A stretch of DNA of 64,000 bases from an uncultured bacterium (GCA_903925685.1 CAIYGI010000112.1:1784-65783); one strand, 5' to 3'. Shown: positions 14,291 to 44,365, counted from the stretch's first letter. Numbers and translations: made by a program. The notes: generated by a model not told the origin, from the letters alone.

Positions 14291-14315
14291 TGCAGAATCA
14301 CGCCTTAATCTGAGA

Positions 14316-14415
14316 CACTTAGTCCCCACCCTTAGTCGGTTACACTTAGTCGTACCACTTAGTCGATTAAGTGTAAGCGACTAAGCGTAACCGACTAAGT
14401 GTGCCGACTAAGAGT
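14316..14415. repeat. about 100-bp imperfect palindrome built from four direct CTTAGTC(G/C) units followed by three inverted CGACTAAG units
   Basis: cacttagtcc..cttagtcgg..cttagtcg..cttagtcg [attaagtgtaag] cgactaag..cgactaag..cgactaag. It is intergenic, downstream of the beta-helix gene. Confidence 0.8.
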
Positions 14416-14421
14416 GCAATC

Positions 14422-15777: not shown

Positions 15778-15894
15778 ATCATCTCCTTTGCCTAATTGTG
15801 AGCCTTTTGCACAACTGCATGGCTCTTTTCCGTTTCCGATCCCTTGCCTCATCGAATACCGAATACAGCCAAGGCCAAGCCATTCGCTCTAAGA

Positions 15895-15965
15895 CATTAC
15901 CTGATTAATCGATTAATCGATTTTACTTGATTAGGCAATTATACTTGATTAATCGATTTCATTTT
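15895..15965. promoter_or_regulatory. operator-like palindromes TTAATCGATTAA (two to three copies) in the divergent promoter between the beta-helix gene and the AraR-like regulator
   Basis: ctgATTAATCGATTAATCGATttt at 15901-15924 and cttgATTAATCGATttc at 15944-15960, in an AT-rich patch 50-110 nt upstream of the regulator start. Confidence 0.55.
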
Positions 15966-16013
15966 TGATATTATCACGCGCTGGCAGATTGTCAACAGGG
16001 AAAAAATCAGACA

Positions 16014-17204
16014 ATGAAGTCCCAAAAACCAGTCGTGAACAAAAGCGCCTCTTGCAGCAATCCGGTTAGAAAGCTTGGCAAAGGCGCACGCATTCCCATC
16101 GATGTTCCGAAGCTGGCAGGTGTCCCGAAATATGCCTGGCTTCAAGGCAAACTGCTCGAAGAGATCCGCAGCGGGCGCTGTCGAGTCGGCGACCGCCTAT
16201 GCACGGAGAAGGAGTTGATTGTCCGCTACCATTTGAGCATCTCCACCATCGCGCGTGCATTGCGTGAGCTTGAATCGCAGGGGTATGTACGGCGAAAGCA
16301 AGGCCTCGGCACGATCGTCAACAGCGTCCACCCCACCGTCAATCAAGCGACCGCCTCTGGCATGGCGACACTCCTGGTATGCGGCATAGTGAACGATGCC
16401 GCCCCTGATTACAGCAATGTCAACTGGTTTATAGCGCACGAGTTTGTTCGCGGCCTGGTCAACACGTTTGAAGGACGTGTTAGACTGGTGAAGCCCACCG
16501 GACTGTTTGCGCAGTTGGACGCGTTGCCGCCCCAATCCAGGGCGGTCGTCATATATGATGGCGCCTTCGATCTAGTGCGACGGCTCGAAGAAGAACACAT
16601 TCCGCACTGCATCATTGACCGGCACACAAACACCACCGACTGCCGTCCGAACACGATCTCGTTCGACCGCATGCGCGGTATTTACGACGGGATGACGTAT
16701 CTGATCAAGAATCTTAGGCATTGTGACATCGCGCTGGTGACCACAGATGCCGGTTTAAACCACGAGAACAGAATCGCCGGCTACCAGATCAGCCTGCGCG
16801 CATTCGGTATTCCCTACCGCCCAGAGCTGGAAGTATTCGCTCCTCCGGGTGGCAGCCAGGAATCTGGCGAAGCCGCCATCCGTGAATTATTGGGGCGCCG
16901 TATCCCCTTTACCGCGGTCTTTGTGGACACTGACATCAAGGCGCTCGGCGCCATAAGGGCCTTGAAACAGGCCGGACTTGCAGTGCCAGGCGACGTTTCT
17001 ATTTTAGGCTTTGACGATGTTCCCGGGGGAGATCGGGCCGATCCGCCACTTACCACCATCCGGGTGCCTCATTTCGAATGCGGGGTAGAGGCCATCCGCC
17101 TCTTGGATGAACGCCTGAGGACGGGAAATGATGTGCCAGGCCGTATTTTAAACACGCGACTGGTTGTGCGACAATCCTGCGGCATGGCAAAGAAAGTTGT
17201 ATAA
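16014..17204 (+). CDS. GntR-family HTH / LacI-type sugar-binding-domain transcriptional regulator (AraR-like)
   Basis: The N-terminal wHTH (KYAWLQGKLLEEIRSGRCRVGDRLCTEKELIVRYHLSISTIARALRELESQGYVRRKQGLGTIV) is GntR-type. The C-terminal about 270 aa are periplasmic-binding-protein-like (LacI/GalR), the architecture of B. subtilis AraR. Confidence 0.75.
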   Translation: MKSQKPVVNKSASCSNPVRKLGKGARIPIDVPKLAGVPKYAWLQGKLLEEIRSGRCRVGDRLCTEKELIVRYHLSISTIARALRELESQGYVRRKQGLGTIVNSVHPTVNQATASGMATLLVCGIVNDAAPDYSNVNWFIAHEFVRGLVNTFEGRVRLVKPTGLFAQLDALPPQSRAVVIYDGAFDLVRRLEEEHIPHCIIDRHTNTTDCRPNTISFDRMRGIYDGMTYLIKNLRHCDIALVTTDAGLNHENRIAGYQISLRAFGIPYRPELEVFAPPGGSQESGEAAIRELLGRRIPFTAVFVDTDIKALGAIRALKQAGLAVPGDVSILGFDDVPGGDRADPPLTTIRVPHFECGVEAIRLLDERLRTGNDVPGRILNTRLVVRQSCGMAKKVV

Positions 17205-17261
17205 GCGGATAAGAAATCGTTTTTCTGTCGGTGCGGTCACACTGCCGCCGCCGGCTGAACG

Positions 17262-18024
17262 TTAGAACCGGTAGTTCATCACGCGGGACATTTCCTCGAT
17301 GACGGCGACTGCATTGGCGACGGGGGTTTCCTCAGGAAGCGGCTTGGCGGTTTCCATGAGATAACCGCCGCCTTGACAGAGGACTTCAACGGCTTCACGC
17401 ACTTCCGCGCGCGCCTCTTCCGGCGTGCCTAAGACGATGCGGCCTTGCGTGCCAATGCCTCCCCGAAAAGTCAGATGCCTCCCGAATTCCCTCTTGATCT
17501 TCCTGATGTCCATCGCCTCGGGTTGGAGCGGATGGAAAACCTGCAGGCCAATGTCCACGAAATCCCCCATGATCTCCGTGTTATCGCCACAGGAATGATG
17601 CCCGACCACCTTGCCGGCGGAGCGAACCTTCGCATATAGTTGCGCGAGACGCGGTTTGAAGAATGTCGTGAAAATCCCGCGGCTGATCATCAAGCCCCGC
17701 TGCGCGCCGAAGTCATCGCCAAACACAACACCGTCAATGGGCAACGGCAGAATTTTGTCAAGCGCGTCCATGTGCATTTGCAGGAGGAGATCGAGCGCGG
17801 CATGCGCAAACCGGGGCTCCAGAAGGTAGTCCATCAATATCTGTTCGAGCCCTCGCAGGACCCAAAGCCGTTCTCCAAGGCACGTCGTAAACTGATAGAA
17901 AATGAAGGCGTCCGGGCGGAGTTTCCGTGCGGCAGCGATCCTGTCGATGTCCGCCTGGGTCACAAGGTCGATTTGCGGGATGCGTTCGACATCGGGGTCC
18001 TTCATGGGCGGGTTGACAAACATG
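17262..18024 (-). CDS. uroporphyrinogen-decarboxylase (URO-D) family protein; start uncertain (ORF extends to 18356)
   Basis: The C-terminal 250 aa (DGVVFGDDFGAQRGLMISRGIFTTFFKPRL..VVGHHSCGDNTEIMGDFVDIGLQVFHPLQP..GGIGTQ) match the URO-D/MtaA-like family. The 5' part of the ORF overlaps the 14-bp tandem repeats, so the true start is probably at or below 18024. Confidence 0.55.
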
Positions 18025-23875: not shown

Positions 23876-24943
23876 TTACAGGCTTTCGGCCACGAGATCG
23901 CCGACCTGGGTGGTGCTGTAGCCCATGCGGCCCGCGGCGATGCTCTTCAGCTTGTGCGCGGTCAGTTCCATCACGGACTTCTCGATCGCCGCCGCGGCCG
24001 CCTTCTCTCCGAGCTGATCCAGCATCATCATGCCGGCGCAAATCGCCGCCAGCGGATTGATCACGTTCTGTCCGGTGTACTTGGGCGCCGAGCCGCCGAT
24101 CGGCTCGAACATGCTGACTCCGCCGGGGGCCGGGTTCAGGTTGCCGCCCGCCGCGATGCCCATGCCGCCCTGCGTCATGGCAGCCAGGTCGGTGATGATG
24201 TCGCCAAAGAGGTTGCCGGTGACGATCACGTCGAACCACTCGGGATTCTTGATCATCCACATGCAGGTCGCGTCCACATGATAGTACTCGCGCTTGATGT
24301 CCGGGAAGTCGCGCGCGCCCATTTCGTGGAAGGCGCGATCCCACAGGTCGTACACAAAGGTCAGCACGTTGGTCTTGCCGCAGAGCGCCAGCGTGCGCTT
24401 CTTGCCGCGCGCCCGCGCCAGCTCGAAGGCGAAGCGCAGAGCGCGGTCCACCTGGAAGCGGCTGTAGACCGCCGCCTGCACGGCCACTTCGTGCGGCGTG
24501 TCCTTCATTGTGAAACCGCCGGCGCCGGTATACATGTCGCCGGTGTTCTCGCGCACGACGACGTAATCGATGTCGGCCGGGCCCTTGTTCTTGAGCGGAC
24601 ACTCGACGCCCGGATACAGCTTCACGGGCCGCAGGTTGATGTACTGGTCGAGATCGAAGCGCAACTTGAGCAGAATGCCCTTCTCGAGAATGCCCGGCTT
24701 CACGTCCGGGTGCCCGATCGCGCCGAGGTAAATCGCGTTGAACTTGCGCAAATCTTCCACCGCCGTCGCCGGCAGAACCTCGCCGGTGCGCAGATAGCGC
24801 GCGCCGCCGAAATCGAAATCCGTCAGATCCAGCTTGAAGCCGAACTTGGCCGCCGCCGCCTTCAGCACCTTGACGCCTTCACGGACCACTTCCGGTCCCG
24901 TGCCATCCCCGCCAATCACCGCGATTTTATAACTCTTGCTCAT
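23876..24943 (-). CDS. 3-isopropylmalate dehydrogenase family (LeuB/tartrate DH-like) protein
   Basis: 355 aa of the isocitrate/isopropylmalate dehydrogenase superfamily (KIAVIGGDGTGPEV, GSAPKYTGQNVINPLAAI). Confidence 0.8.
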   Translation of the reverse strand: MSKSYKIAVIGGDGTGPEVVREGVKVLKAAAAKFGFKLDLTDFDFGGARYLRTGEVLPATAVEDLRKFNAIYLGAIGHPDVKPGILEKGILLKLRFDLDQYINLRPVKLYPGVECPLKNKGPADIDYVVVRENTGDMYTGAGGFTMKDTPHEVAVQAAVYSRFQVDRALRFAFELARARGKKRTLALCGKTNVLTFVYDLWDRAFHEMGARDFPDIKREYYHVDATCMWMIKNPEWFDVIVTGNLFGDIITDLAAMTQGGMGIAAGGNLNPAPGGVSMFEPIGGSAPKYTGQNVINPLAAICAGMMMLDQLGEKAAAAAIEKSVMELTAHKLKSIAAGRMGYSTTQVGDLVAESL

Positions 24944-24967
24944 GTTGTGGCTTTCTTCTCCGCATGC

Positions 24968-25012
24968 TTGCGTTTCGCGGGCGCATCCCAGCGCGCCCGC
25001 AAGCGGAGCATC
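24968..25012 (-). promoter_or_regulatory. GC-rich stem-loop in the 5' leader of the leuB-family gene
   Basis: gcttgcgtttcgcgggcgc-ATCCCAG-cgcgcccgcaagc. The stem is about 15 bp and ends about 25 nt upstream of the start codon on the transcribed strand. No U-tract follows. Confidence 0.35.
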
Positions 25013-25136
25013 ATATACCCAAGCCCCGCCCCCTCGTCCAGTAAATCGTCAGGGTGTCAAGCGAAACCGGGAATTGACTTCCGTTTTGCGGCATGTTACG
25101 CGATTGGCACAGCGTGCCATGCACGAAGGATAACGC

Positions 25137-26072
25137 ATGCATCTTCCAGACGGGTTCGTCAATCTCCCAACAGCCATCACGACCGCCGCCTGCGCGGCGG
25201 GCGGGATCGCGTTGGCGCTGCGGCGGCTGCGCGCCCTGCCGCCGCGGCGGGTGCCGCTGCTGGGACTGGCTGCGGCCTTTCTTTTCGCCGCGCAGATGCT
25301 GAACTTTCCCATTGCGGGCGGCACTTCGGGGCATCTGATCGGCGCCGCGCTGGCCGTGACGCTGCTCGGACTCGATGCGGCGATCGTGGTCATGACAACC
25401 GTGCTCCTGCTTCAGGCCTTGCTCTTTAACGACGGCGGTCTGGCCGCCCTGGGGGCCAATCTGCTCAACATGGCGGTCGTCGCCCCGCTGGCAGCATGGT
25501 GTGTCCTGCGTCCCATCGTGCGCCTCGGCGGCGGCGGACTGCGCAACCGCCTGCTGGCCTGCGCCTTCGCGGCCTGGTGTTCCGTCGTGGCCGCCGCGCT
25601 CGTCTGCGCCCTGGAACTGACCGCCTCCGGCGTTGCGCCGTGGCGGATTGTCCTGCCGGCCATGGGCGGCATCCATATGCTGATCGGACTCGTGGAGGGA
25701 GCGATCACCGCGCTGGTCGTGGCGGCCGTCTGGCGCCTGCGTCCGGACCTGGCCCAGTCGTCCGCGCCGACGCCGTCCTACGGAGCGCTGGCTGGGTGGG
25801 GACTGCTGGTCGCGCTCGGGCTGGCGGTCTTGATCGCCCCTTGGGCCTGCCCCTGGCCCGACGGACTGGAAGCCGTGGCCACCCGGCTGGGCTTCGAGAG
25901 CCGCGCCGCCACGCAACCGCTCTGGCATGGCCCGCTGCCGGACTATACGCTGCCCGGCCTGCGTTCCAAATTCGCGGCCGCCATGCTGGCCGGCGCCACC
26001 GGGTGCCTGACGGCCTTCGCCGCCGCCTGGTGGATCGCCCGCGCGCTCACGCGTTCCGGCGAAACACGCTGA
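25137..26072 (+). CDS. ECF-transporter substrate-capture subunit CbiM/NikM with C-terminal PDGLE domain (Co/Ni uptake)
   Basis: It starts with MHLPDGF. It has multiple TM segments, and the C-terminus has PWPDGLE. No cbiQ/cbiO genes are adjacent. Confidence 0.75.
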   Translation: MHLPDGFVNLPTAITTAACAAGGIALALRRLRALPPRRVPLLGLAAAFLFAAQMLNFPIAGGTSGHLIGAALAVTLLGLDAAIVVMTTVLLLQALLFNDGGLAALGANLLNMAVVAPLAAWCVLRPIVRLGGGGLRNRLLACAFAAWCSVVAAALVCALELTASGVAPWRIVLPAMGGIHMLIGLVEGAITALVVAAVWRLRPDLAQSSAPTPSYGALAGWGLLVALGLAVLIAPWACPWPDGLEAVATRLGFESRAATQPLWHGPLPDYTLPGLRSKFAAAMLAGATGCLTAFAAAWWIARALTRSGETR

Positions 26073-27282
26073 GCGATTCGAAGTGCGCCGTGCGGGGGAA
26101 CATGTCGGCCAGTTGCGCCGATTCGATCCGGTAGCCCGCCGCCGCCAGGCGCGCGGCGTCGCGCGCCATCGTGTCCGGCGCGCAGGAAATGTACAAAATC
26201 GCCGACGGTCGCGCGCGCGCCAGCTCTTCGCAGACGCCGGTTTCGAAGCCTCCGCGCGGAGGATCCACGATCAAGGTCGTCTCCGCGGCAACGCCGGCGT
26301 CCGCAATCGTCCGCAAAGCCTGCCGCGCGGAACCAGCCGTCCACTTCACCTGCACACCCAGCCGCCCGGCGTTATGCTCCGCCGCGGCGAGCGCCGCTTC
26401 GTCCACTTCCACGCCCGTCACCTGCGGCACGCCGGCCGACGCCGCGGCCAGGGCGAAAACGCCGACGCCACAGTAAAGATCCAGCACCCGCGCCGGACGT
26501 TCCGCCGCGATGCGTGTCCGCACGGCTGTCATAAGCAGGTCGGCCACCGGCGAATTCACCTGGTAGAAACTGCCGCGCGGCACGGAAAGCGGGCCCAGCG
26601 CCGATCGTTCGACCAGCCATGATGCGCGTTCCGGCGCCGCGCCACGCCACCAGTTCGCGCCGTCGTGTTCGGTCCAGCGCAGCGTCAAATCCGTGTCGCG
26701 GCGCAGCCCTTTCAAGAATCCCGGCTGCGCGCGCAGTTCCGCGAGGCGGAGATTGATCGGCGCCACCGCCAGCGGACAGGCCGGAACATCCAGCACCGTC
26801 TTGTTGTCGTCCATCACATAACCGAGCGCGGCCGTGCCATTCTCGAATTGGGAATGCAGCACCAGTTTGTTGCGATACCCAAGCGGCGCCGGGGCGGCCA
26901 GCGGCGCCACCGGCGGCGGCGCGCCAGGAACCGCCGCCAGCATCGCCGCAAACTGGCGCTGTTTGGCCTCCAGTTCGGCGGCGTAGGTCGCATGCTGATA
27001 GCGGCAGCCGGAGCAGGCGGCCGGCGGACAAGGCGTCCGGCCGGCCGGTTGCAGGGCCAACGGACATGCGGTCGCGATGCGGTCGCGCGACGGCGCGAGC
27101 ACTTCGATCAGGCGCGCGGTGTCGTACTGGCGATGCGACGCGGTCACCCGCGCCAGCACGCGTTCGCCCGGCAGGGCGCCGGCGACGAAACAGACCTTCC
27201 CGTCCGCCGCCCGCGCCAGCCCGGCGCCGCCATAAGCGATTTCGGCAATCTCCAATTCCAACGGTTTTTCGCAGGCAGACAT
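26047..27282 (-). CDS. 23S rRNA (uracil-C5)-methyltransferase RlmD/RumA family (TRAM + Fe-S + SAM MTase)
   Basis: A TRAM-like N-terminus, a Cys cluster (CPLAL..C..C.GCRYQH) and the MTase motif LDLYCGVGVFALAAA. The start was chosen at the internal Met (MSACEKPLELEI). Confidence 0.75.
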   Translation of the reverse strand: MSACEKPLELEIAEIAYGGAGLARAADGKVCFVAGALPGERVLARVTASHRQYDTARLIEVLAPSRDRIATACPLALQPAGRTPCPPAACSGCRYQHATYAAELEAKQRQFAAMLAAVPGAPPPVAPLAAPAPLGYRNKLVLHSQFENGTAALGYVMDDNKTVLDVPACPLAVAPINLRLAELRAQPGFLKGLRRDTDLTLRWTEHDGANWWRGAAPERASWLVERSALGPLSVPRGSFYQVNSPVADLLMTAVRTRIAAERPARVLDLYCGVGVFALAAASAGVPQVTGVEVDEAALAAAEHNAGRLGVQVKWTAGSARQALRTIADAGVAAETTLIVDPPRGGFETGVCEELARARPSAILYISCAPDTMARDAARLAAAGYRIESAQLADMFPRTAHFESLSVFRRNA

Positions 27283-27286
27283 GTCT

Positions 27287-27544
27287 TTATGCAGTTTTGT
27301 TTTCCGCGACGACCATATGGCCGCGTCGGGAAGCCGTACCCGCGCCGATCCCCTCGACAATCACCTGATGGAGCGATTCGGCGTCACCGAAGCGCTTCAC
27401 TGCGTCAAGAACCTCGATCCCTACGAGTCGTCCATCCCGGTCATACTCAACGGCAATCTCCTCGCCAAGGGGCTTAGTCGTCACCGTGGTCTCGCGAAAA
27501 ACGATACTGAGCGCGTCAACTTCCGGATCGTAACTGATTTTCAT
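27287..27544 (-). CDS. DUF2283 domain protein
   Basis: MKISYDPEVDALSIVF... is the typical DUF2283 N-terminus. It is often the partner of DUF4258 in toxin-antitoxin-like pairs, but here it stands alone beside the RM gene. Confidence 0.6.
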   Translation of the reverse strand: MKISYDPEVDALSIVFRETTVTTKPLGEEIAVEYDRDGRLVGIEVLDAVKRFGDAESLHQVIVEGIGAGTASRRGHMVVAENKTA

Positions 27545-27563
27545 ACGGCTAATCGGATCGGTT

Positions 27564-30500
27564 TCATGGATGTTCTCCGTTCTCCTGCACAATCCCGATT
27601 TCCTCATCTGTCAGGCCGTAAAGCGCGTAGACCAGACGGTCAACCTCGCGGTTCGCCGCGTGAATCTGGCGGTCAAGCGCTTCCTTGTCGGGCGGGGACT
27701 TCGCGACGGCAACCTGCTTACGCAAACTCATGATCTGGTCCACCAGGTTGTGGAGGATGGCAGATGCGCCTCCTGTCGGGATGGCGATGGGCATTTGTTC
27801 GATGTATTGCTTGTTAAGCGCGATGTACCCGCCGCGAAATGGTGTACTGATCGACCGAAGGAAACGGCTCAACAAACTCGAATTGAGTATCCCGAGTAGG
27901 CAGTAGTAGTCGATGGTTGCATCTTCGCGAAGCGTAATCCCGTAGCCGCCTCCTCCACCCCCGCCACTTCCGACAAAAAAGTAGCGTCCTTCAAGGTCCG
28001 GCGCAAAGCAACTGCCCGTCGCAATGGAAGGAACAAGCAACTTGGGAAGAGGCATTTTGGTGTGGTTCTTTTTGTAAACATATCCGTACCATTGCAGCCC
28101 CAGCTTGCCTTTGTTTCGCCCAGACAACCGCGCCTTGCATTCAGTTAGATAAGCCCAAGTCAGAGGAAATCGTTGAGCGTAAGCATCTGAAGGAATCAGC
28201 GCGGACTTTCCTGATCGAGTCTCATAAGGAAAGACAAGTAGTTTGGAAACATCAGACAAGAAGTAACGCCGAATATTGAGCGAACCCTTTAGAAATGGCT
28301 TCAAATGAGCGCTCTCGAACCAATGCTCTCGGCCAGTGTGCTTTGACGAGCAAAGGACTCTGCCTTTGTCACGTTTCGCTTCCTCAAGAATGAAGACATC
28401 GTCGGCATCTGTCTGAAGCCCGACAAATAGGTCGGCGATATCGCCAAGTTTTACCGGCCACTTATTGAGGGCGTTAAAGACCTTCGCCGTCGCTCCGACC
28501 GCGAAATTCCATTCTTTCGAGGTGATAACCCGGGCTGGGATGCGTCCCTCGGCTCCTGTCGTCGTGGTCTTTCTGCCTTTGGCGCGATACAATGCCGCCG
28601 CTTCATGGACAAGCATGGGAAACACATCTGTTCTCTTTCGACCTGCGGGTTCCAATTGTTCCATGCGCCATGCGTCAAGGTCATCAACCTTTACATAATG
28701 GCACTCATCTATGCCCGCTTTATGGAGGAATAGCAGGCACGTATAAGTCGTAGCCCCTGCGAACACCTGTTGATCTCCGAAATGAACGACGTGGGCAAGG
28801 TGTCTGCCGCCGGCAATGATCCCGCGCAAGGCTTCGCCGTACTGCGCATTGAAAAACTTGTGCGGCAAAATGAAGCCCAGCCGCCCGGATTTGTTCAAGA
28901 GACTCAGCGCCTTCTCGACGAAGACAACGTAAATGTCATAGTTCCCGGCCGCTGCCGACCGGTAGAGCGACTTGTAAAGCTCGACCTCGGCTGGCGCCCA
29001 TTCCTTCATCATCTGAATGCGGATGTACGGCGGATTGCCGATGATTGCATCGAAGCCTGGTAGAACGCGCTCGCCGAGCGGCGGTTTCGGCGAAACCGCC
29101 CTACCAAACACTTCTGGAAACGCTTGCGGCCCGTCGAAAACATTGATGCGGTAGCGGTCTTCCTCCGGGAGCAAGGAAAGTTGCTGGTGCCTGTAGGCAT
29201 CCGATCCGATAAGGGAGTTTCCGCATTTGATGTTGCTGCCGAGGTCCGGCAAGGCGCGTTGGTGGAACAGTTCAAACTGCTTCGTGATACTCTCTTGGGA
29301 TTCGCCTTCCAGCACTTTCAAGAGCAGCGAAAGTTTCGTCACCTCGACGGCTTGCGCGTCGATGTCCACGCCGAAAATGTTGTTGAGAAGGATTCGCTTT
29401 CTCTCGTCGGTGGTCAGGCGGAAGCAAGGTTTCAGGTGTCGGGTGTCAGGTGTCAGACCAATACCGGCGATTTCGTATAGACAAGGGTTCCGTCCTTTCA
29501 TCCAGGATCCTGGATCATGTTCGGTGTAGTACTGCAAATGCCAGTCCAGCAGTAACTGATAGGCGCCCAGCAGGAACGAGCCCGAACCGCAGGCCGGGTC
29601 GAGAATCTTCAACTTGGCCGCCTGCTTCGGCGTCCCTACTTCCAGTAATTTGCCGACCGTGTTCTTGACGATGTAATCCACGATATAGGTCGGGGTGTAA
29701 TAGACGCCACCCGCCTTGCGGACTTCCGGCTTTTCCTCAACCTTGGCCTGATGCCCGGCGGTCAGCCGGATTACCTTGCCTAGGAAGCGCTCGTAAACCT
29801 GGCCGAGAATGTCGGCGGACAAAACGGAAAACTCGTAGGGGCTTTCCGGGTAGTAGAGATTGGCGAGAATATCGTGCAAAACCTTGTCGTCAAGGTTCAA
29901 CTTCAGGGTCAACTCGTCCGGCGCTTCGGGCCGGTCCTTTTCGCGCTGAAAATGGAACAAACCAGAGTTGTAACGATCATCAGCCTGTTGGAAGAACTCG
30001 CAGAGCCGGGGGTAGACCCGCTCGCCGTTGCGAAGCGTCATCAGCCGCCCGTAAGGTTCAATGCCACGATCTTCACAGATACGCAGGAAGATGATCCTGT
30101 CAATGGTGCACTGAACGGAGAAGTTCAGTTCCCGTTGCGACAAGTCAGGATTCCGCAAAGCGATGGTCCGGGCGAGAAGGTCACGCCAGCGTTCAATTTC
30201 CTCAAGAAATGCCTCGTCCACACTGGTAGTTCCGTGCTTGCCTTTGGCGCCTTCGGCGAACTTGTCGAACGAGCCTTTCAGCACGGCTTCGCGGGAGAAG
30301 ATCGCGGCAATCTCGTCCCACTTCTCGGCGTACTGCCCGGAAGTCAGATACATGACGCGACCGACCGCCGCCGAATCGTTCTTGCAGGGTTTGACGCGGC
30401 AGTCATAGACGGCGAACTCACCGAAGTCAGTCAAGATGCTCAAAGGGAGTTTCGCCGACCAGCCATAACGCCGGAGTTGGTAAGCCGGGTGCGGGGAGTC

Positions 30501-30797
30501 TTTGATGTTCACGGACGGCTTCTTGCATTCGACAAAAAACTTACGCGCGCCGCCGATTCGGAAGCAAGAATCCGGGGCCTCCGTCGCGCCCCCGATCTTC
30601 AAGGCTTGCTCGTGAATCACGTCCTTGTAAGCTTCGGCGTAACCTTGCTCGTTGTGTACGTCCCAGCCCAGCGCTTTGAAAAACGGATCAATGAACTCGA
30701 CCCGGATTTCCGTCTCCTTGTACTGGCCGGACTCGTACGCTTCGCGTTGTGCGTCGTAGCGTTCAAGCAGCCGTTCGATCTCTTGCGGAACAGCCAT
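27564..30797 (-). CDS. Type IIG / PglX-like bifunctional restriction-modification enzyme (N-terminal nuclease-like region + gamma-class N6-adenine DNA methyltransferase + C-terminal specificity region)
   Basis: 1077 aa from MAVPQEIERLL, with GAGG at -12 and a TATAAT about 36 nt upstream. MTase motif I is DPACGSGSFLLGAY and motif IV is IIGNPPYIRIQ. The N-terminus (EIRVEFIDPFFKALGWDV) is typical of Type IIG/IIL and BREX PglX enzymes. The gene is visibly more AT-rich than its flanks. Confidence 0.8.
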   Translation of the reverse strand: MAVPQEIERLLERYDAQREAYESGQYKETEIRVEFIDPFFKALGWDVHNEQGYAEAYKDVIHEQALKIGGATEAPDSCFRIGGARKFFVECKKPSVNIKDSPHPAYQLRRYGWSAKLPLSILTDFGEFAVYDCRVKPCKNDSAAVGRVMYLTSGQYAEKWDEIAAIFSREAVLKGSFDKFAEGAKGKHGTTSVDEAFLEEIERWRDLLARTIALRNPDLSQRELNFSVQCTIDRIIFLRICEDRGIEPYGRLMTLRNGERVYPRLCEFFQQADDRYNSGLFHFQREKDRPEAPDELTLKLNLDDKVLHDILANLYYPESPYEFSVLSADILGQVYERFLGKVIRLTAGHQAKVEEKPEVRKAGGVYYTPTYIVDYIVKNTVGKLLEVGTPKQAAKLKILDPACGSGSFLLGAYQLLLDWHLQYYTEHDPGSWMKGRNPCLYEIAGIGLTPDTRHLKPCFRLTTDERKRILLNNIFGVDIDAQAVEVTKLSLLLKVLEGESQESITKQFELFHQRALPDLGSNIKCGNSLIGSDAYRHQQLSLLPEEDRYRINVFDGPQAFPEVFGRAVSPKPPLGERVLPGFDAIIGNPPYIRIQMMKEWAPAEVELYKSLYRSAAAGNYDIYVVFVEKALSLLNKSGRLGFILPHKFFNAQYGEALRGIIAGGRHLAHVVHFGDQQVFAGATTYTCLLFLHKAGIDECHYVKVDDLDAWRMEQLEPAGRKRTDVFPMLVHEAAALYRAKGRKTTTTGAEGRIPARVITSKEWNFAVGATAKVFNALNKWPVKLGDIADLFVGLQTDADDVFILEEAKRDKGRVLCSSKHTGREHWFESAHLKPFLKGSLNIRRYFLSDVSKLLVFPYETRSGKSALIPSDAYAQRFPLTWAYLTECKARLSGRNKGKLGLQWYGYVYKKNHTKMPLPKLLVPSIATGSCFAPDLEGRYFFVGSGGGGGGGYGITLREDATIDYYCLLGILNSSLLSRFLRSISTPFRGGYIALNKQYIEQMPIAIPTGGASAILHNLVDQIMSLRKQVAVAKSPPDKEALDRQIHAANREVDRLVYALYGLTDEEIGIVQENGEHP

Positions 30798-30835
30798 TTC
30801 TACCTCGTGAATCTGAAGGGGCATTATAACGCATA

Positions 30836-32092
30836 TTACTCGGGCAACCAGCCGCGGCGGATGGCGTCTTCGATCATGGCGGAGGCGAAGGCCCAGAGCG
30901 GCGCGGCGCCTTCTTCCATGTGGCGGTTGCGCGCCCGCACCTGGGCCGCCTTGACGCCGTGATCGCGCCAGGCCACGCCGCCGGTGGCGTAGTTGTGCAT
31001 GATCGGCTGCAGGCGGTCGAGCGCCGCCGCGAAACGGGCCTCGGGCGTTTCCCGCGCCTCGAACTCGTCCCACAGCGCCCGCATGGCAACGGCCTGATCC
31101 GGCGGCAGCATCGCAAACAAACGCGCCGCCGCCCGCTGTTCGCGAGCGGGCTTCTCGACGTTGCCGCGCTCGTCGTAGCAGTAGGTATCGCCCGCGTCGA
31201 TTTCCACGATGTCGTGGACCAGCGCCATGCGGATCACCCGCCCGAGGTCGAGTTGCACCGGCGCATGCTCCGACAGCAGCGCGGCCATCAGCGCCAGGTG
31301 CCAGGAATGCTCGGCGTCGTTCTCGTAACGTGAGCCGTCGGTCAGCCAGGTCCGGCGCACAATCTGCTTGAGCTTGTCCGCCTCGGCCACGAAGGCCATC
31401 TGCCGCGCCAGCCGCGCGTTGCCCGCCGCGGGCAGTTCCGCCGGCGGTTCCTCGACGGCCACGCCGCGGGCGCGTTCGATCCAGCGCAGCAGTTCGCGCG
31501 CCACGGCGCGCTTGCTGCCCAGCGGCAAGGGCTGCGGCGGCGCGCCCGGCGCCAGCAGCACCACGCGATTCGTGTCAACATCGAAGCCGGCGTCGGGCTG
31601 GGTCACATCGTTGGCGACCATCAGATCGAGGCCCTTCTCCGCCAGCTTGCGCGCCGCCTCTTCCAGCATGTGGTCGGTCTCCGCGGCAAAACCCACGAAA
31701 GTCCGCGCGCCTTTGAGGGGCTTGATCGTCTTGAGGATGTCCGGTGTGGCCTCCAGCTCGAACGCCGGATGCGCGCCGCCTTTTTTCCGTTTCACCGCCG
31801 CGCACTGCACCGGCCGCCAGTCGGCTACCGCCGCCGCCATCACCAACGCCTCGCAGGCCGGCAGCGCCGCCCGCACGGCGGACAGCATCTCCTCCGCCGA
31901 GGTTACCCGCAGCAGCGTCACGCCACCCGGCGCAAGCAGCGCCGTGGGCCCGGAGACCAGCGTCACGGCATGGCCGCGCCGCGCCGCCTCGGCGGCCACG
32001 GCGTAGCCCATCTTGCCGGACGAGCGGTTGCTCAGAAAACGCACGGGATCCCAGAATTCACGCGTCGGCCCGGCTGTGACAAGCAAATGCAT
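30836..32092 (-). CDS. coaB: phosphopantothenate-cysteine ligase (CoaB domain) fused to a C-terminal HD-domain phosphohydrolase (YfbR-like)
   Basis: The N-terminal about 225 aa (LLVTAGPTREFWDPVRFLSNRSSGKMGYAVAAEAARRGHAVTLVSGP...FVGFAAETDH...LDLMVANDV) are collinear with the CoaB half of E. coli Dfp. The C-terminal about 190 aa carry HD motifs (ENDAEHSWHLALMA, LVHDIVEIDAGDT). No CoaC flavoprotein domain is present. Confidence 0.75.
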   Translation of the reverse strand: MHLLVTAGPTREFWDPVRFLSNRSSGKMGYAVAAEAARRGHAVTLVSGPTALLAPGGVTLLRVTSAEEMLSAVRAALPACEALVMAAAVADWRPVQCAAVKRKKGGAHPAFELEATPDILKTIKPLKGARTFVGFAAETDHMLEEAARKLAEKGLDLMVANDVTQPDAGFDVDTNRVVLLAPGAPPQPLPLGSKRAVARELLRWIERARGVAVEEPPAELPAAGNARLARQMAFVAEADKLKQIVRRTWLTDGSRYENDAEHSWHLALMAALLSEHAPVQLDLGRVIRMALVHDIVEIDAGDTYCYDERGNVEKPAREQRAAARLFAMLPPDQAVAMRALWDEFEARETPEARFAAALDRLQPIMHNYATGGVAWRDHGVKAAQVRARNRHMEEGAAPLWAFASAMIEDAIRRGWLPE

Positions 32093-32139
32093 GGGATGTT
32101 ACTCGGGACAATCTTTGTATATGCAGTCAAGCGCGCCGT

Positions 32140-38452: not shown

Positions 38453-41400
38453 ATGAACACAACGAAACGTCTGGTAAAAACTCCGCGGATATATCCCATC
38501 GCGCCCGCCCTGGCGGCCTGCGCCGCGCTGTTATGCCTTTTGGCAGGCGTCCAGACGGCGGCGGCCAGCGTGGTTGAGTCGGAAACCGTGGCCGGCGATT
38601 ATGCCGGTCTCAAAGCGCAGGCCGAAGCGTATTACGCCCAACATTCCTACGCCCTGGCGCGCGATGCCTATCTGCTCGCCACCAATCTCGCTCCCTCCGC
38701 GCCCGAACGGCGTTGGACGTCCTTCCGCATCGCCGACACCCGCTGGCGCGCGCAGGCCGGCAGCAAGACCGCCGACGCCACGGCCTTCGAACAGGCGCAA
38801 CGCGAACTGGACGCCCTGGTGCGCGACGTGAGCCGGGTCGAGGACCGCGACCGCGTCTGGGCCGAGGCTCAGGAATCGCTGGGCGATTTTTCCTGGACCC
38901 GCCGCGATGGACGCGACTGGAATGCGGCCTGGCCGCGCTATGCGCAGGCGCTCGACTGGCGGGCCGGACAGACGAACAGCGCCGCCAACCGCGCGCGCTA
39001 CCTGGAAATCGTCTGGAAAGCCGCCGATAACGGACAGGACGACCCTTACTATCGTTACGGCTGGCACGGCAACGCCGTTCCGACGCCCATCCTGGCGAAC
39101 GCGGTAAAAGTGGCCCAGGACGAGACCGCCCGCGCCCATGCGCACTATTTGATTGCCATGCAGTTCATGCGCGGCAGCGACAACGACCAGCGCGCGCGGG
39201 TGCCGGATGAATTGGCAGCCGCCCAGACGCCGGGCAAAAGCTGTCCTTGGTACGACGATGCGCTCTTCCATGAAGCCGAGTGGCTGGAAAACAACGGCCG
39301 CGTCACGCTCGACGACGACGGCAACTGGCAGCAGAAACCGGACTACGGTGGCGCCGTCAAACTCTACCGGCGACTGCTCAAGGAATTCGCCAAGGGTGAG
39401 TCGCGCTATGTTGAGGAGGCACGCGCGCATCTCGACAACCTCGTCAACCCGCGGTTAGGCGTAGCCGTCGGATCCGTCTTCCTGCCAGGCTCGGAGGTCC
39501 AGTTCCAGTTCAGCAGCCGCAATCTGCCCGACGTGCGCTTCAGCCTTCAGCATGTTGCGCTGCCCGAAGCCGTACGCTTCGCGGCCGGGGACAATTCGCT
39601 GCAGGAATGGACGCGCCATATTCCAACCGGCGGCGAGATCGTCACCAACTGGAGCCGCGCCACCAACGACAAGGGCGGGCACGTCCCGTTCAACGAAACC
39701 GTGCGCCTGGAAGCTCCGCTCGCGCCCGGCGCCTACCTGCTCGAAGCCCGCTCCGGCACCAACAGCGCGCGTGACGTAATCATCGTCAGCGATATCACGC
39801 TCGTGACAAAATGCAGCGGGCGGCAGATCGTGGTCTATGCCTGCGATGCGCTTTCCGGCGTTCCCGTGCCCAACCTGGCCCTGCGCTTGTGGATGCGTTA
39901 CACGCAGGAGCGGCAGTCGCGCTTCGAGTCGCGCGACGGGGTGACCGGCGAGGACGGCTTGGCGAAGTTCGACATCAGCCGCAACCGTGACAGCCGCGAC
40001 AATACATTCCTGATCCTCGCCCAGTCCGGCGACCGCCAGGCCTTCACCTTTGCAGGGAGTTCCTGGTATTCCCCCACCCCGGACGCCTGGAAACTCTACG
40101 CGTTCACCGACCGTCCCGCCTACCGGCCGGGCGACGAAGTGAAGTGGAAACTGATTGCCAGGCAAACCTCCCAGGAGGGCGCCTTCCTCACCCCCGCCAA
40201 TCAACCACTGCACTACCGCATCCACGATCCTCGCGGGCAGACCTTGCGGGAGGCGGACTTCACCACCTCATCCTTCGGCAGTTACTCCGGCAGTTTCACG
40301 ATGGCCTCCAATCAGCCGCTCGGCGAATACACGATCGAGTTCTGGACCGGCCCCGGCCAGGCCGCGCACATCGGCCAAGCCGCGCTTTTCCGCATGGAGG
40401 AGTATAAACTTCCCGAATTCCGCGTCACCGTCCGTACACCGGAGGAAAACGGCCGGCGGCGGACTTTCCGCCTGGGCGACACCGTATCGGCCGAGATCCA
40501 GTGCGAACTCTATGCCGGCGGTCCGGTGGCCAACGCCGCCTGCGAGGTGCTGGTTCGCCAGCGCCCCTTCTTCCGTTATTGGCGGCGTCCCCATGACTTC
40601 GACTGGTACTACGCCGACATGCAGCCGAATTTCAACCGCGGCTTCAACGAGGGCGCCATCGTGAAGCGCGAAACGCTGCGCACCGACGCCCAGGGGCGCG
40701 CGCAGATCGCCTTCGACACGCCTAGCGATGGCGGGCAGGATCTGGAGTACAGCTTCGAGGCGCGCGTCACCGACGCCTCGCGCCGCGAGATCGCCGGCGC
40801 CGGAGTCGTCCGCGTCACGCGCCAGCGTTACTACGCCAACCTTGAACCCGACCACCAGCTCTACCGTCCGCAGGACCGCGTGCGCATTAGCGTCAGCGCC
40901 GGCGACGCCAACGAACAAGCCGTGCAGGTCGCGGGCGTCATCAAGGTCCAGCGCAGCCGCTGGGTCGAGGTCTGGCGCTCGCCGGAGGGACGCGAGGTTA
41001 CCGGCACAGCCCTGCGCGATGCGCGGCGCGCCTGCGCAATCTTCCCCCCCACCCCGGCGCCCGGCAAACCGGGCTGGGCGCAACTGCGCTGCGGCTTCGA
41101 ATCGGAACCCGTGCTCGAACATCCGCTCAACCTCGACAGCCAGGGCAAGGCGGAGTGTACCTTCACGCCCGAGCGCGAGGGTTACTACCGCGTCAGCTGG
41201 CGCGGCAAACAAAAGGGCGAACCGGCGGTAAGCGCCGAGTGTACCGTCTGGGTCGCCACTGAGGCCAGCGCCGACCTGGGCTACCGCAAGGGCGGATTGC
41301 AGATCGTCGCCGACCGCGACACCTTCCGCGAAGGCCAGACGGCGCCGATCATGCTATCGGCCCCCAATGGCGGCTGCCACGTGCTTTTCACCGTCGAGAC

Positions 41401-44365
41401 CGACGAACTGCTCGACGTACAGGTCGTAAAAATGGACGGCGACGTAAAACTGCTGGCGCTGCCGATCCGCGCGCGGCATGTGCCGAACGTCGTGCTCAGC
41501 GCCGCGATGGTCGCCGATCGCGCGCTGTTGACCGATGAGTTGCCCATCGTCGTGCCGCCCGTGCGCAACTTCCTCAATGTAACCGTCGCCGCCGACAAGC
41601 CGCTCTATCAGCCCCGAGAGACCGGCACATTACGTGTCACGGCGCGCGATTGGAATGACCGCCCCGTCGCGGCGGAGGTGGCGCTCTCGCTTTTCGACGA
41701 GTCGGTCACCTATATTCAATCGGAATATGCCGGCGACATCCGGCAGTTCTTCTATGGCGACAAGCGCCCGCACAGCGTGCAAACCAGCAGCAGTTTTCAG
41801 CAACGGCCCTATCTCAAACTGGTGCGCGAGGAAGGGCGGCTGATAGACGTCCGCGAGCAGCGTGCGCACGCCGAACGGCAGTTCAATGATGGAGGAGTTG
41901 GCAACGAGCGAGAGCGGCGCGAAATCGACTCCGACGGTCCAATCAATGGCCGATTGGTTATGCGAGACAAGAAGAATGCGGTGAAAGGCGGGGAAAACTC
42001 AGCCGTCATTGTACGCTCTGACTTCCGCGCCACGGTACTGTGGCAGCCGGCGGTGCTGACCGATGCCAATGGCGAGGCCGTGGTCCCGATCGCCTTCCCC
42101 GACTCGCTGACTGCCTGGCGCGCCAGCGCCCGTGCCGTCACCAGCGGTCAGCAGTTTGGCAACACCAACCTGACCCTGCACACCAAGCTGCCGCTGGTCG
42201 CGCGTCTCCAGACGCCGCGCTTTTTGGTGGCGGGCGACGAGGTGACCATCTCCGCCGTCTTCAACAACCATACCGCTTTGCCCATCAAGGTGCTTCCCGA
42301 ACTCAAGGCCGCCGGCATCACCCTGCGCGGCTGGCTGCGCGGCGGCGAACTGCAGCGCGAGGCGCCGGACGCCGTCGATGTGCCGCCCGAAGGCGAGGCG
42401 CGCGTGGACTGGCGCGCCGCCGCCGAAACTACCGGCGAGGCGCGCCTGGAACTGCGCGCCCGCGCCGGCTCTTACAGCGACGGCATGAGCGCGTCATGTC
42501 CGGTGCTGGAGCATGGCGTTGAAACCACCATCACCCGCTCGGGCCGCGCACTGGGCGATGACGTGCGCCTGCGCTTCGATCTGCCCAAGGCCCGCCGTCC
42601 GAATTCCGCCACGCTGACGGTGCAGGTCACGCCGAGTCTCGCCGTGACGATGCTCGATGCGCTGCCCTATCTGTTGGACTACCCCTATGGCTGCGTCGAA
42701 CAGACCATGAGCCGCTTTCTGCCGGCGGTGATCGTCCGGAAAACGCTCGCCGATCTGGGGCTCAAGCCCGAGGCCGTGGCCGACCGCATCTTTGGCGGCA
42801 TCGAGGCGGCAACCGCGGACAAGACCCATCCGCAAGGCGCGCAAAACATGCAGCGGCTGTCGGCCATCGTCAGCGGCGGACTGACCCGTCTCTACGACTT
42901 CCAGCACGCCGATGGCGCGTGGGCCTGGTGGAAGGAAGGCGACAGCGACCGCTTCATGACCGCCTACGTGGTGTATGGTCTGGCGCTCGCCCGTCAGTCG
43001 GGTGTTGAGGTCAAACCCGGCGTCGCCGAACGCGGCGCGGCCTGGCTGGATAAGGAACTGGTGACGGAGGAGGCCAACCCGGACATGCAGGCATGGATGC
43101 TGCAAGCCCTGGGCGAATGGCAGTGCGCGAACGGCGCCAAAGAACCCAGCGCCTTCCAGAACAAGGCCCTGGATAACGTCTGGACCCAGCGCGACCGTCT
43201 CAACGGCTGCACCCGCGCCCTGGCGGCGCTGGCCGCCAAACGCTTCGGCCGCGCCGATCAGGCCCGCGTGTATGTGGATAATCTGCGCAACGGCATTCAG
43301 GTGGACGACCGGCCCGACCAGTCCATCGTACAAACAGGTGTGCCGCAGAGCAGCACCGGGCAAAGCTACGCCGTCACCGCCACCGCCCACTGGGGCGAGG
43401 ACGGCATAGCCTGGCGCTGGTCCGACGGCGGCGTCGAAGCCACCGCCAACGCCCTGCGCGCCTTGCTGGCGGTGGATCCAAAGCATCCGCTCGTCGCGCC
43501 GACCGTGCAGTGGCTCGTCAAAAACCGCCGCGGTGCGCAGTGGAGCAACACCCGCGACACGGCGCTGGTTGTGCTGGCGCTGAACGATTACCTGCGCGTC
43601 AGCGGCGAACTTGGCGCCAGCGAGTCCTACGAGCTGCGCGTCAACGGCCAGCGCGTGGCCGTGGAACAGATCACGCCCGAGACCGTGCTCAGCGCGCCGG
43701 GCCGTTTCGAGATCGCCCCCGGACTGCTGCGCGACGGCGCGAACGAGGTGCGCATCATGCGCACGGATGCGACCAATGGCGCGCTCTACGTCTCGGTCTG
43801 CGCCAAATTCTTCAGTCTGGAGGAGCCGATCCCGCCGGCGGCCAGCGAGCTTTTCCTGCAGCGCCACTATTACCGCTTCGTCGGCCATCCCAGTCTGCTT
43901 AAGGGCTGGGTCTACGAACGCCAACCGCTGCCCGACCAGGGCGCTGTAACGAGCGGCGAGCGGATTGAAACCGCGCTGACGCTGGAGGTCAAGAATAACG
44001 CCGAGTACCTGATCCTGGAGGATCTCAAGCCCGCCGGACTGGAAGCCGTGGCGCTGCGCAGCGGCGAGGCGCTTGACGCGCGCGAACTGACCAGGGACGG
44101 CGCCGCGCGGGCGCCCGACCGGCGCGAGGCCGGCGACTATACCGGCCGCACCCGCCGCGTGTATCAGGAACTGCGCGACCGTAAGCTGGCGATCTTCATC
44201 GACAAACTCCCGCAGGGCATCTGGGAATTAAGATGCGAAATGCGCGCCGAGACCCCCGGCCGCTTCCACGGCCTGCCCGCACTGGGCCAGGCCATGTATG
44301 TGCCGGAAATCCGCGCCCACACCGCGGAGCAGCGCATTACCGTGGAAGACCGCAGCGAGAAATAG
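38453..44365 (+). CDS. bacterial alpha-2-macroglobulin family protein (thioester-containing)
   Basis: 1970 aa with a signal peptide. It has the MG-domain architecture and the thioester motif YPYGCVEQTMSRF (CxEQ). The start was chosen at MNTTKRL (38453). Confidence 0.85.
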   Translation: MNTTKRLVKTPRIYPIAPALAACAALLCLLAGVQTAAASVVESETVAGDYAGLKAQAEAYYAQHSYALARDAYLLATNLAPSAPERRWTSFRIADTRWRAQAGSKTADATAFEQAQRELDALVRDVSRVEDRDRVWAEAQESLGDFSWTRRDGRDWNAAWPRYAQALDWRAGQTNSAANRARYLEIVWKAADNGQDDPYYRYGWHGNAVPTPILANAVKVAQDETARAHAHYLIAMQFMRGSDNDQRARVPDELAAAQTPGKSCPWYDDALFHEAEWLENNGRVTLDDDGNWQQKPDYGGAVKLYRRLLKEFAKGESRYVEEARAHLDNLVNPRLGVAVGSVFLPGSEVQFQFSSRNLPDVRFSLQHVALPEAVRFAAGDNSLQEWTRHIPTGGEIVTNWSRATNDKGGHVPFNETVRLEAPLAPGAYLLEARSGTNSARDVIIVSDITLVTKCSGRQIVVYACDALSGVPVPNLALRLWMRYTQERQSRFESRDGVTGEDGLAKFDISRNRDSRDNTFLILAQSGDRQAFTFAGSSWYSPTPDAWKLYAFTDRPAYRPGDEVKWKLIARQTSQEGAFLTPANQPLHYRIHDPRGQTLREADFTTSSFGSYSGSFTMASNQPLGEYTIEFWTGPGQAAHIGQAALFRMEEYKLPEFRVTVRTPEENGRRRTFRLGDTVSAEIQCELYAGGPVANAACEVLVRQRPFFRYWRRPHDFDWYYADMQPNFNRGFNEGAIVKRETLRTDAQGRAQIAFDTPSDGGQDLEYSFEARVTDASRREIAGAGVVRVTRQRYYANLEPDHQLYRPQDRVRISVSAGDANEQAVQVAGVIKVQRSRWVEVWRSPEGREVTGTALRDARRACAIFPPTPAPGKPGWAQLRCGFESEPVLEHPLNLDSQGKAECTFTPEREGYYRVSWRGKQKGEPAVSAECTVWVATEASADLGYRKGGLQIVADRDTFREGQTAPIMLSAPNGGCHVLFTVETDELLDVQVVKMDGDVKLLALPIRARHVPNVVLSAAMVADRALLTDELPIVVPPVRNFLNVTVAADKPLYQPRETGTLRVTARDWNDRPVAAEVALSLFDESVTYIQSEYAGDIRQFFYGDKRPHSVQTSSSFQQRPYLKLVREEGRLIDVREQRAHAERQFNDGGVGNERERREIDSDGPINGRLVMRDKKNAVKGGENSAVIVRSDFRATVLWQPAVLTDANGEAVVPIAFPDSLTAWRASARAVTSGQQFGNTNLTLHTKLPLVARLQTPRFLVAGDEVTISAVFNNHTALPIKVLPELKAAGITLRGWLRGGELQREAPDAVDVPPEGEARVDWRAAAETTGEARLELRARAGSYSDGMSASCPVLEHGVETTITRSGRALGDDVRLRFDLPKARRPNSATLTVQVTPSLAVTMLDALPYLLDYPYGCVEQTMSRFLPAVIVRKTLADLGLKPEAVADRIFGGIEAATADKTHPQGAQNMQRLSAIVSGGLTRLYDFQHADGAWAWWKEGDSDRFMTAYVVYGLALARQSGVEVKPGVAERGAAWLDKELVTEEANPDMQAWMLQALGEWQCANGAKEPSAFQNKALDNVWTQRDRLNGCTRALAALAAKRFGRADQARVYVDNLRNGIQVDDRPDQSIVQTGVPQSSTGQSYAVTATAHWGEDGIAWRWSDGGVEATANALRALLAVDPKHPLVAPTVQWLVKNRRGAQWSNTRDTALVVLALNDYLRVSGELGASESYELRVNGQRVAVEQITPETVLSAPGRFEIAPGLLRDGANEVRIMRTDATNGALYVSVCAKFFSLEEPIPPAASELFLQRHYYRFVGHPSLLKGWVYERQPLPDQGAVTSGERIETALTLEVKNNAEYLILEDLKPAGLEAVALRSGEALDARELTRDGAARAPDRREAGDYTGRTRRVYQELRDRKLAIFIDKLPQGIWELRCEMRAETPGRFHGLPALGQAMYVPEIRAHTAEQRITVEDRSEK

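Follow-up and report, generated by a model that had tools for sequence, protein, structure and literature searches.

In characterized Type IIG and Type IIL restriction-modification (RM) enzymes, such as BpuSI, MmeI and DrdV, a target-recognition domain (TRD) binds the site, a methylase modifies adenine with S-adenosyl-methionine (SAM), and a nuclease cleaves DNA lacking this modification, at a distance from the site. Separate companion methylases are found in the Eco57I and BpuSI systems, and enzymes of the MmeI type methylate one strand and cut ~20 nt away. Here we examine an RM gene in a stretch of 64,000 nt from an uncultured bacterium (GCA_903925685.1 CAIYGI010000112.1:1784-65783; hereafter the window, along which positions are counted). 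The gene lies at 27564..30797 on the minus strand and encodes a protein of 1077 residues plus stop, as delimited by Pfam, PADLOC and the N-termini of homologues. We consider it highly probable that a Type IIG RM system made up of a single gene was recently acquired here, in a defense-gene hot spot.

The RM open reading frame (ORF) is uninterrupted over 1077 codons, from an ATG at 30797 to a TGA stop at 27566..27564. This start agrees with the N-termini of 41 homologues, which together with the window protein form the 42-sequence alignment used below; an alternative in-frame ATG at 30824 has no conserved ORF in a related element (L091). The PADLOC model REase_MTase_IIG (PDLC03604) matched the protein with 848.5 bits (E 1.9e-255), residues 5-1069 aligning with positions 8-1003 of the 1011 in this hidden Markov model (HMM), without frameshift or truncation. 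The top Pfam match is Eco57I (PF07669; residues 472-679, 143 bits), accompanied by N6_Mtase (60 bits), HSDR_N (residues 26-134, 30.1 bits with a cut-off of 25.1) and TaqI_C (residues 905-1004, 26.5 bits). Both searches place nuclease and methylase domains within the one polypeptide. Judged by its sequence, the protein has all the testable features that define a Type IIG enzyme. No record with exactly this protein sequence turned up when it was looked up.

The N-terminal PD-(D/E)xK nuclease domain occupies about residues 1-160 (30318..30797, minus strand, as for all features of the protein). Many other PD-(D/E)xK nucleases are among the lower-ranked matches. A check of the N-terminal fold, proposed in an earlier note on this DNA, thus supports the reading given there. 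The catalytic residues D76 (30572..30570), E90 (30530..30528) and K92 (30524..30522) are invariant in the alignment, in the context APDxCFRIGGxRKFFVExKK. The gamma-class N6-adenine methyltransferase domain, recognized by Eco57I, N6_Mtase and profile matches to CamA and BseCI, spans about residues 358-700 (28698..29726). It contains motif I, DPACGSGSFLLGAY (residues 400-413; 29600..29559), and motif IV, IIGNPPYIRIQ (residues 585-595; 29045..29013); DPACGSG at 400-406 (D400, C403, G404, S405 and G406) and NPPY at 588-591 are invariant in the alignment. Both motifs, together with the N-terminal string EIRVEFIDPFFKALGWDV at residues 30-47, had been quoted for a 1077-residue protein in the earlier note, and all of them were recovered at these residues. 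A target-recognition region (about residues 750-1005, TaqI_C-like) and C-terminal helices ending in the conserved LVYALYGLTDEEI complete the protein (27582..28550), as seen by Pfam, structural alignments and the family consensus; profile and structural alignments with CamA and BseCI run on through the TRD. All of the 200-plus invariant family positions in the alignment are kept in the window protein. Within the TRD, a GSGGGGGGGYG run (residues 943-953; 27939-27971) is conserved in the family consensus and is therefore a structural feature, not a slippage-prone repeat.

We compared a predicted full-length model of the RM protein (pLDDT, predicted local distance difference test, 79.6) with solved structures. 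Foldseek with the whole model ranked CamA and BseCI best, over methylase and TRD, then BrxX/PglX, BpuSI (E 5.8e-19), MmeI (TMq 0.47) and DrdV. In enzymes of the BpuSI/Eco57I type (PDB 3S1S; PF07669), as in the window protein, one chain starts with a PD-(D/E)xK nuclease, which a helical connector joins to a gamma-class N6-adenine methylase, and has its TRD in the C-terminal part; BpuSI aligns with the full RM model over 1112 columns. In contrast, identity in the structural alignments is only 12-13%, no sequence-level match to BpuSI appears even with the 42-sequence profile, and the TRD of the window protein is TaqI/CamA-like. Unlike the Eco57I and BpuSI systems, the acquired islet that holds the RM gene has no separate companion methylase nearby; it consists only of the RM gene, a 27-nt mini-ORF and a DUF2283 gene, which is not the two-gene arrangement of the Eco57I type.

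The earlier note had also favored an MmeI-like enzyme. As a mechanistic analogy this stands, whereas the domains specific to MmeI do not fit: Pfam MmeI_N, MmeI_hel, MmeI_TRD and MmeI_C find no match in the RM protein, only MmeI_Mtase is matched (48.4 bits, well below the score of Eco57I), and the nuclease is of the HsdR/BpuSI type. Structural identity to the Type IIL enzymes MmeI and DrdV (PDB 5HR4, 7LO5) is 11-13%, and to MmeI 12-13%. CamA, M.BseCI and M.TaqI belong to the gamma N6-adenine methylases, solitary or Type II, whose TRD is C-terminal. They match residues ~350-1000 best, in sequence as in structure (profile E 6.7e-42, Foldseek E 1.4e-31), but they are methylases only and lack the 330-residue nuclease-plus-helical N-terminus of the RM protein.

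BREX PglX/BrxX proteins (PDB 8C45, 9EWZ) are similar in size to the window protein and have a related core of gamma-class methylase and TRD. One could thus envisage an orphan BREX-type PglX methylase that methylates without cleaving and stayed on when the other BREX genes were lost, an explanation that we hold to be very improbable. Partial HMM matches are significant (PADLOC PDLC02529, 1.8e-33; NCBIfam BREX-2 PglX, 1e-28), and BrxX/PglX structures align over more than 1100 columns. Nevertheless, the RM protein falls below all family cut-offs, its NCBIfam scores being 4-20x too low (99.6 against 400 for BREX-2, 40-94 against 500-900 for the others), and the best PADLOC PglX model reaches 113 bits against 848.5 bits, full-length, for Type IIG. 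Furthermore, the protein carries an intact, invariant catalytic PD-ExK nuclease domain. PADLOC found neither BREX parts nor a second DNA methylase among the 43 other large ORFs of the window, in agreement with the remark in the earlier note that brxA/B/C, pglZ and brxL are missing nearby. Likewise, the flanking ORFs surveyed at ~70 relative loci, one on each side, have no recurrent family, and the two closest homologues lie among housekeeping genes. The earlier preference for a Type IIG enzyme over an orphan BREX methylase is thereby upheld, and the protein fits neither the MmeI family, nor BREX PglX, nor the two-gene Eco57I systems.

The RM family is very common. More than 8000 homologous proteins were found at E <= 1e-10, and the best 120 of them share 55-85% identity and, with two exceptions, cover 87-100% of the query. 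When each species was represented by one genome, at least 597 matching stretches were confirmed, in at least 597 species; the hosts include Planctomycetota, Chloroflexota, Verrucomicrobiota, Nitrospirota, Acidobacteriota and several archaea. We surveyed one ORF on each side, where present, at ~70 genome loci: no family occurs in more than four of the 124 flanking ORFs, among which are recA, rpoB and tRNA synthetases. The closest homologues, P0001 (85% identical) and P0002 (76%), stand alone among housekeeping genes at other loci. Together with a window devoid of BREX parts and of a second DNA methylase, these data indicate that the RM gene is a stand-alone single-gene system, as far as gene content can predict. 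Its neighbors in the window are ispD, waaA, thyA-like, coaB-HD, rlmD-like, cbiM, leuB and asd. A PADLOC match to 'mad2' in the window was dismissed as a generic SAM-methyltransferase cross-match to the rlmD-like RNA methylase. Several RM homologues, at L009, L036, L043, L045, L051 and L073, are interrupted or extended by ~1 kb (match spans of 4.0-4.7 kb), and proteins P0011 and P0050 are fused to a Y1 (IS200-like, PF01797) transposase domain, so that insertion-sequence integration seems common in this family.

The RM polypeptide joins an HsdR/BpuSI-type PD-(D/E)xK nuclease, a gamma-class N6-adenine methyltransferase and a TaqI/CamA-like TRD. By analogy with the characterized enzymes, the TRD would bind a short asymmetric site, the methylase would use SAM to methylate an adenine within it on host DNA, and the nuclease would cleave incoming DNA that is unmethylated, a fixed distance away. 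Because no helper methylase is present, methylation by the RM enzyme itself would have to suffice for self-protection.

The protein could instead be a Type IIG derivative that now acts mainly as a solitary methyltransferase or epigenetic regulator, its nuclease silenced or attenuated, or its gene could be unexpressed. Consistent with this, the adjacent toxin-antitoxin module has decayed, a sign that the islet is eroding, and the islet promoter is putative. Yet the ORF is full-length, retains all invariant positions including the nuclease triad, shows neither frameshift nor truncation relative to the HMM, and is identical in sequence in several samples, where contigs break inside the gene; we therefore find such a loss of restriction decidedly unlikely. 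The contigs in question come from the same strain (ERZ1426855, ERZ1426592, ERZ1426669 and ERZ18667579, the last being L093, with 100% identity over 4.9 kb). These contigs stop 177 bp inside the 5' end of the RM gene, or start in its 3' part or in DUF2283, and no full-length identical copy was retrieved from these public contigs. The breaks are probably due to conserved RM segments shared with other community members.

We next consider the Type IIG gene in its genomic setting. The acquired islet (27284..30835, minus strand; 3552 bp, GC 0.55) fills the entire gap between the stop codon of coaB-HD and the start codon of the rlmD-like gene, boundaries that were drawn from alignment with a sister contig. 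On one side lies a core gene encoding CoaB (DFP C-terminal) fused to an HD_3 phosphohydrolase domain (30836..32092, minus strand; 94% nucleotide identity to the sister), and on the other a core gene encoding a TRAM domain and an RNA uracil-5 methyltransferase of the RlmD/TrmA type (26047..27282, minus strand; 92%). The sister contig, L174, aligns with window 32104..30836 (94.2%) and 27283..24285 (92.3%); homology stops at the coaB-HD stop codon (30836) and restarts at 27283, 1 nt ahead of the ATG of the rlmD-like gene. The sources of L174 and of a further sister sequence, L175, are a Logan contig and a metagenome-assembled genome (MAG). Between the same junctions L174 holds an unrelated cargo of 4978 bp (GC 0.54). 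This cargo encodes an AAA_15-type ATPase (PADLOC PDC-M55A 7e-57, NsnB 5e-54, AriA 8e-33), a 366-residue partner with which the ATPase forms a two-gene candidate system, an M78 (CapP-like) peptidase and a LysR regulator. Thus the search of related genomes suggested in the earlier note, as a check of strain specificity, finds a sister with 92-94% identical flanks and different cargo at the spot; the RM gene does not belong to the core at this locus. In the related elements L091 and L088, homology to the islet ends at 30834 and 27288, respectively. In L007, a relative with 89% identity, the coaB-HD stop is immediately followed by a further, different gene.

MAG GCA_025360745.1, which has a coaB-HD contig of the L174 type, contains an 85%-identical RM homologue on another contig and in a different neighborhood; this second-locus copy has 84-85% nucleotide identity, below that of the core genes (92-94%). 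On the contig of P0002, the RM protein is 76% identical and coaB-HD only 61%. A 64%-identical coaB-HD relative (L006) was also tried as a reference for the site; it has no synteny downstream and could not define it.

Base composition points the same way. The islet has a GC of 0.55 and the RM gene a GC at third codon positions (GC3) of 0.66, while seven flanking genes have GC 0.60-0.70 and GC3 0.77-0.87. The earlier observation that the gene is lower in GC than its coaB and rlmD flanks (both 0.70) is therefore correct, although the islet is not unique in this, the region at 13.7-18 kb being equally low. It might be argued that the gene is a vertically inherited core methylase whose lower GC reflects amino-acid composition. 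In the family as a whole, gene GC tracks host GC (r = 0.90), and the gene often falls slightly short of its flanks (at 53 of 66 loci; median difference -2.4 points). However, the deficit here amounts to 7.5 points and extends to GC3, the sister genome has unrelated cargo at the locus, L007 also differs after the coaB-HD stop, and homologues are scattered across bacterial phyla and archaea, all of which makes vertical inheritance exceedingly improbable. Together, conserved flanks, alternative cargo in L174 and atypical GC indicate that the RM islet is, on comparison of the available sequences, recently acquired and situated in a defense hot spot.

The locus resembles defense-island hot spots flanked by core genes in having identical junctions around unrelated defense cargo in two 92-94% identical genomes; it differs from them in its very small size, being confined to one intergenic gap in which no base is spare. 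The islet ends bear neither direct nor inverted repeats, the window has no tRNA, and no recombinase, integrase or transposase was seen. We therefore reject insertion of the integrase or transposon type, and entry by homologous exchange through the conserved flanks is the most likely route. In this scheme, the RM gene would have brought a DUF4258-DUF2283 pair with it at its 3' end.

Upstream of the RM ATG, a -10-like hexamer, TATAAT (30823..30828, minus strand), lies inside the islet. The earlier note had placed it ~36 nt upstream of the start and overlapping the coaB-HD stop; its 3' end is actually 25 nt from the ATG, and the overlap belongs to a second hexamer, TAATAT (30838..30833). A Shine-Dalgarno-like (SD) element, ACGAGG (30804..30809, minus strand), lies 6 nt upstream of the ATG. 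In L091, TACAAT stands opposite TATAAT, and ACGAGG, with its GAGG core SD, is kept. The claim that the gene has its own promoter is thus supported in part, by this conservation of the hexamer and the SD, and is not supported by a consensus scan. Use of an islet promoter is accordingly put forward here as a candidate feature. Terminator-like matches were no commoner than in shuffled sequence.

Several observations weigh against our interpretation of the locus. The TaqI_C score of the RM protein falls exactly on the cut-off. Sequence searches of the PDB, with the single sequence and with the profile, reach only the methylase and TRD half and return no BpuSI, MmeI or DrdV, which were reached by fold comparison; the family is therefore one without a close solved structure, and no named characterized enzyme is close in sequence to the RM protein either. 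Enzymatic activities, recognition and cleavage geometry we infer by analogy. Regarding acquisition, it is by binning that the second-locus RM copy (L001) is assigned to the same organism. The comparisons revealed no true empty site, and in several samples the 100%-identical strain has the 3' part of the islet; 'recent' acquisition is therefore judged from GC and from relatives of 89-94% identity. Finally, the sigma-70 consensus scan calls no promoter at TATAAT and there is no acceptable -35 element; the four genes share one strand, and read-through from coaB-HD is therefore as possible as transcription from an islet promoter.

Downstream of the RM gene lies a DUF2283 (YuzE-like) gene of 85 codons (27287..27544, minus strand; PF10049 54.6 bits, cut-off 23). 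Its start is likely the ATG at 27544, not that of a longer ORF from 27607. The earlier note had recognized this gene, which is confirmed, as a frequent small companion of defense genes whose usual DUF4258 partner is missing. We find that it is not a generic companion. Sequence relatives identify it as the predicted surviving antitoxin of a DUF4258-DUF2283 pair carried on the 3' end of the RM lineage. No intact toxin gene stands upstream of DUF2283 in the window, as had been said, but a 23-nt 5' remnant of it is present. After the RM stop, the bases 27567..27545 (ATGAAACCGATCCGATTAGCCGT) are toxin-derived and are joined directly to the DUF2283 ATG, creating the mini-ORF MKPIRLAV* (27541..27567, minus strand), which was recognized by alignment with L088. 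Window 27579..27545 is 91.4% identical to L088 3194-3228, where the toxin starts; intact toxins begin MKPIRLS.HAL, and 29 of 30 match PF14076. Compared with L088, ~247 nt are deleted, including the SD of the antitoxin itself. This later deletion would have removed the toxin except for those 23 nt at its 5' end and spared the antitoxin, which two ATGA overlaps now link to the RM gene, one between the RM stop and the mini-ORF ATG, the other between the mini-ORF stop and the DUF2283 ATG. Because of these overlaps, translational coupling from the RM gene to DUF2283 is possible.

DUF2283 homologues number 522, the closest being 84-88% identical. The closest relatives have 97 residues; the window gene is 12 codons shorter, its end coinciding exactly with the islet boundary, and it shares 90.7% nucleotide identity with L088 3476-3732. 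In L088, L089 and L090 the same DUF2283 gene is preceded by an 84-residue DUF4258 gene. We collected 73 non-redundant close DUF2283 loci, of which 70 served to count toxins and 67 were informative for RM genes. A full or partial DUF4258 gene is directly upstream of DUF2283 in 51 of the 70, and a Type IIG homologue or its remnant in 10 of the 67. The window DUF2283 thus belongs to the same subfamily as predicted type II toxin-antitoxin pairs of this kind; it differs from them in that the toxin is cut to 23 nt and the antitoxin alone remains. In the literature, DUF4258 is regarded as a BECR-fold putative RNase toxin (PMC11980606; bioRxiv 10.64898/2026.08.28.747851). A literature search found no paper naming DUF4258 and DUF2283 together. 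The use of the DUF2283 number in one paper for FseA, an activator of integrative and conjugative elements, is not relevant to the window gene.

The RM-toxin-antitoxin triad is intact in L147 and L116, and in L119 the toxin is partial (matching to residue 74 of 84). The toxin was deleted independently in the window, L094, L108, L113 and L128, and L091 and L092 keep the toxin-antitoxin pair but, of the RM gene, only the promoter region and 52 codons. Such recurrence raises the prospect that RM, DUF4258 and DUF2283 form a functional three-gene unit, in which the pair stabilizes the RM gene or backs it up by abortive infection, and in which the retained DUF2283 controls RM expression or neutralizes related toxins elsewhere, for example. 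The 10 informative loci with a Type IIG homologue or remnant directly upstream, the tight spacing (5-12 nt or ATGA overlaps) and the two overlaps that still chain the window antitoxin to the RM gene all speak for it. To see how general the linkage is, we turned to L001-L087, comprising the 80 RM loci of the genome scan together with the surroundings of P0001 and P0002 and of two coaB-HD relatives. Searches of these with phmmer and tblastn for DUF2283 and DUF4258 gave no toxin and one weak DUF2283-like match (31-32% identity, ~3 kb downstream of the RM gene), indicating that the pair is not a family-wide partner; it is therefore a passenger of one sub-lineage. Moreover, P0001 and P0002, the closest RM homologues, both lack the pair, no RM gene accompanies most members of the toxin-antitoxin subfamily, and repeated independent loss of the toxin is the usual decay pattern of a selfish passenger. 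A functional three-gene unit is thus an unlikely description of this locus. Similarly, we doubt that the recurrence as such reflects a functional composite and not hitch-hiking; in such a composite, the toxin-antitoxin pair could also mediate cassette exchange at the conserved 3' end that codes for LVYxLYGLTxEEI.

The relatives of the pair show how the 3' end of the RM gene may be rearranged. Fragments of the last 35-55 RM codons (...IDxLVYxLYGLTxEEI...) lie downstream of DUF2283 at L088 3752-3854, L089 1682-1784, L090 481-583, L105 5051-5158 and L113 3306-3476. The toxin-antitoxin cassette is thus bracketed by two copies of the RM 3' end, which suggests insertion or exchange of the cassette by recombination at the conserved segment. 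In L088, a 396-residue ORF without Pfam match (2019-3209) is located between the RM homologue and the DUF4258-DUF2283 pair, and a 27%-identical relative of it adjoins the RM gene in L011. We considered whether the RM C-terminus, '...GEHP*', had been captured from this gene. This was rejected: the RM remnant of L091 and L092 ends '...NSHP*', the same type of ending, and the 396-residue gene of L088 is therefore a later insertion. A DUF2971 protein is encoded downstream of the toxin-antitoxin pair in L088, L089 and L090.

The RM islet represents a very common family and an ordinary, well-documented kind of mobile anti-phage defense. What is added here, namely exact islet boundaries, alternative cargo, a toxin relic and a recurrent RM-toxin-antitoxin linkage, is neat but conventional; practical value is modest and current understanding is unchallenged. 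The gene is an uncharacterized allele in a very widespread Type IIG family that is structurally unsolved, and the enzyme may read a new recognition sequence through its TRD. Type IIG enzymes are useful reagents, as well as barriers to transforming bacteria of uncultured lineages. The locus is a clean natural example of a zero-slack defense hot spot with alternative cargo at 92-94% identity. It also exemplifies repeated, independent toxin loss with the antitoxin kept, and a Type IIG lineage that repeatedly bears a DUF4258-DUF2283 pair at its 3' end.

Other features of the window were noted along the way. The GC-low patch at ~13700-18000 (~0.55, as low as the RM islet) encodes a DUF4838 protein, two ORFs without Pfam match, a GntR/LacI-type regulator and a URO-D-like protein, with no defense matches. 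An ORF of 1970 codons without PADLOC match lies at 38453-44362 on the plus strand. The coaB-HD fusion is a protein of 418 residues, in which CoaB (DFP C-terminal, phosphopantothenate-cysteine ligase) is joined to an HD_3/YfbR-like phosphohydrolase; this architecture is found in ~80 of the best 120 matches (53-100% identity), so it is a conserved, clade-wide fusion and not a local accident. Homology to the contig of the sister MAG ends at window ~36621, beyond maf, after which different genes follow in the window; in the sister (L175 1-2754), this region encodes a Vsr endonuclease, a C5-cytosine methylase (PADLOC MTase_II 1e-115) and a DUF4928/Type II restriction endonuclease-like gene (1.3e-15). 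At the junction of thyA-like and coaB-HD (32105-32107), where the window holds ~3 nt, the sister has a 721-bp RHH-PIN toxin-antitoxin pair (L174 375-1095, L175 7268-7988), which makes this a second variable spot ~1.3 kb from the RM islet.

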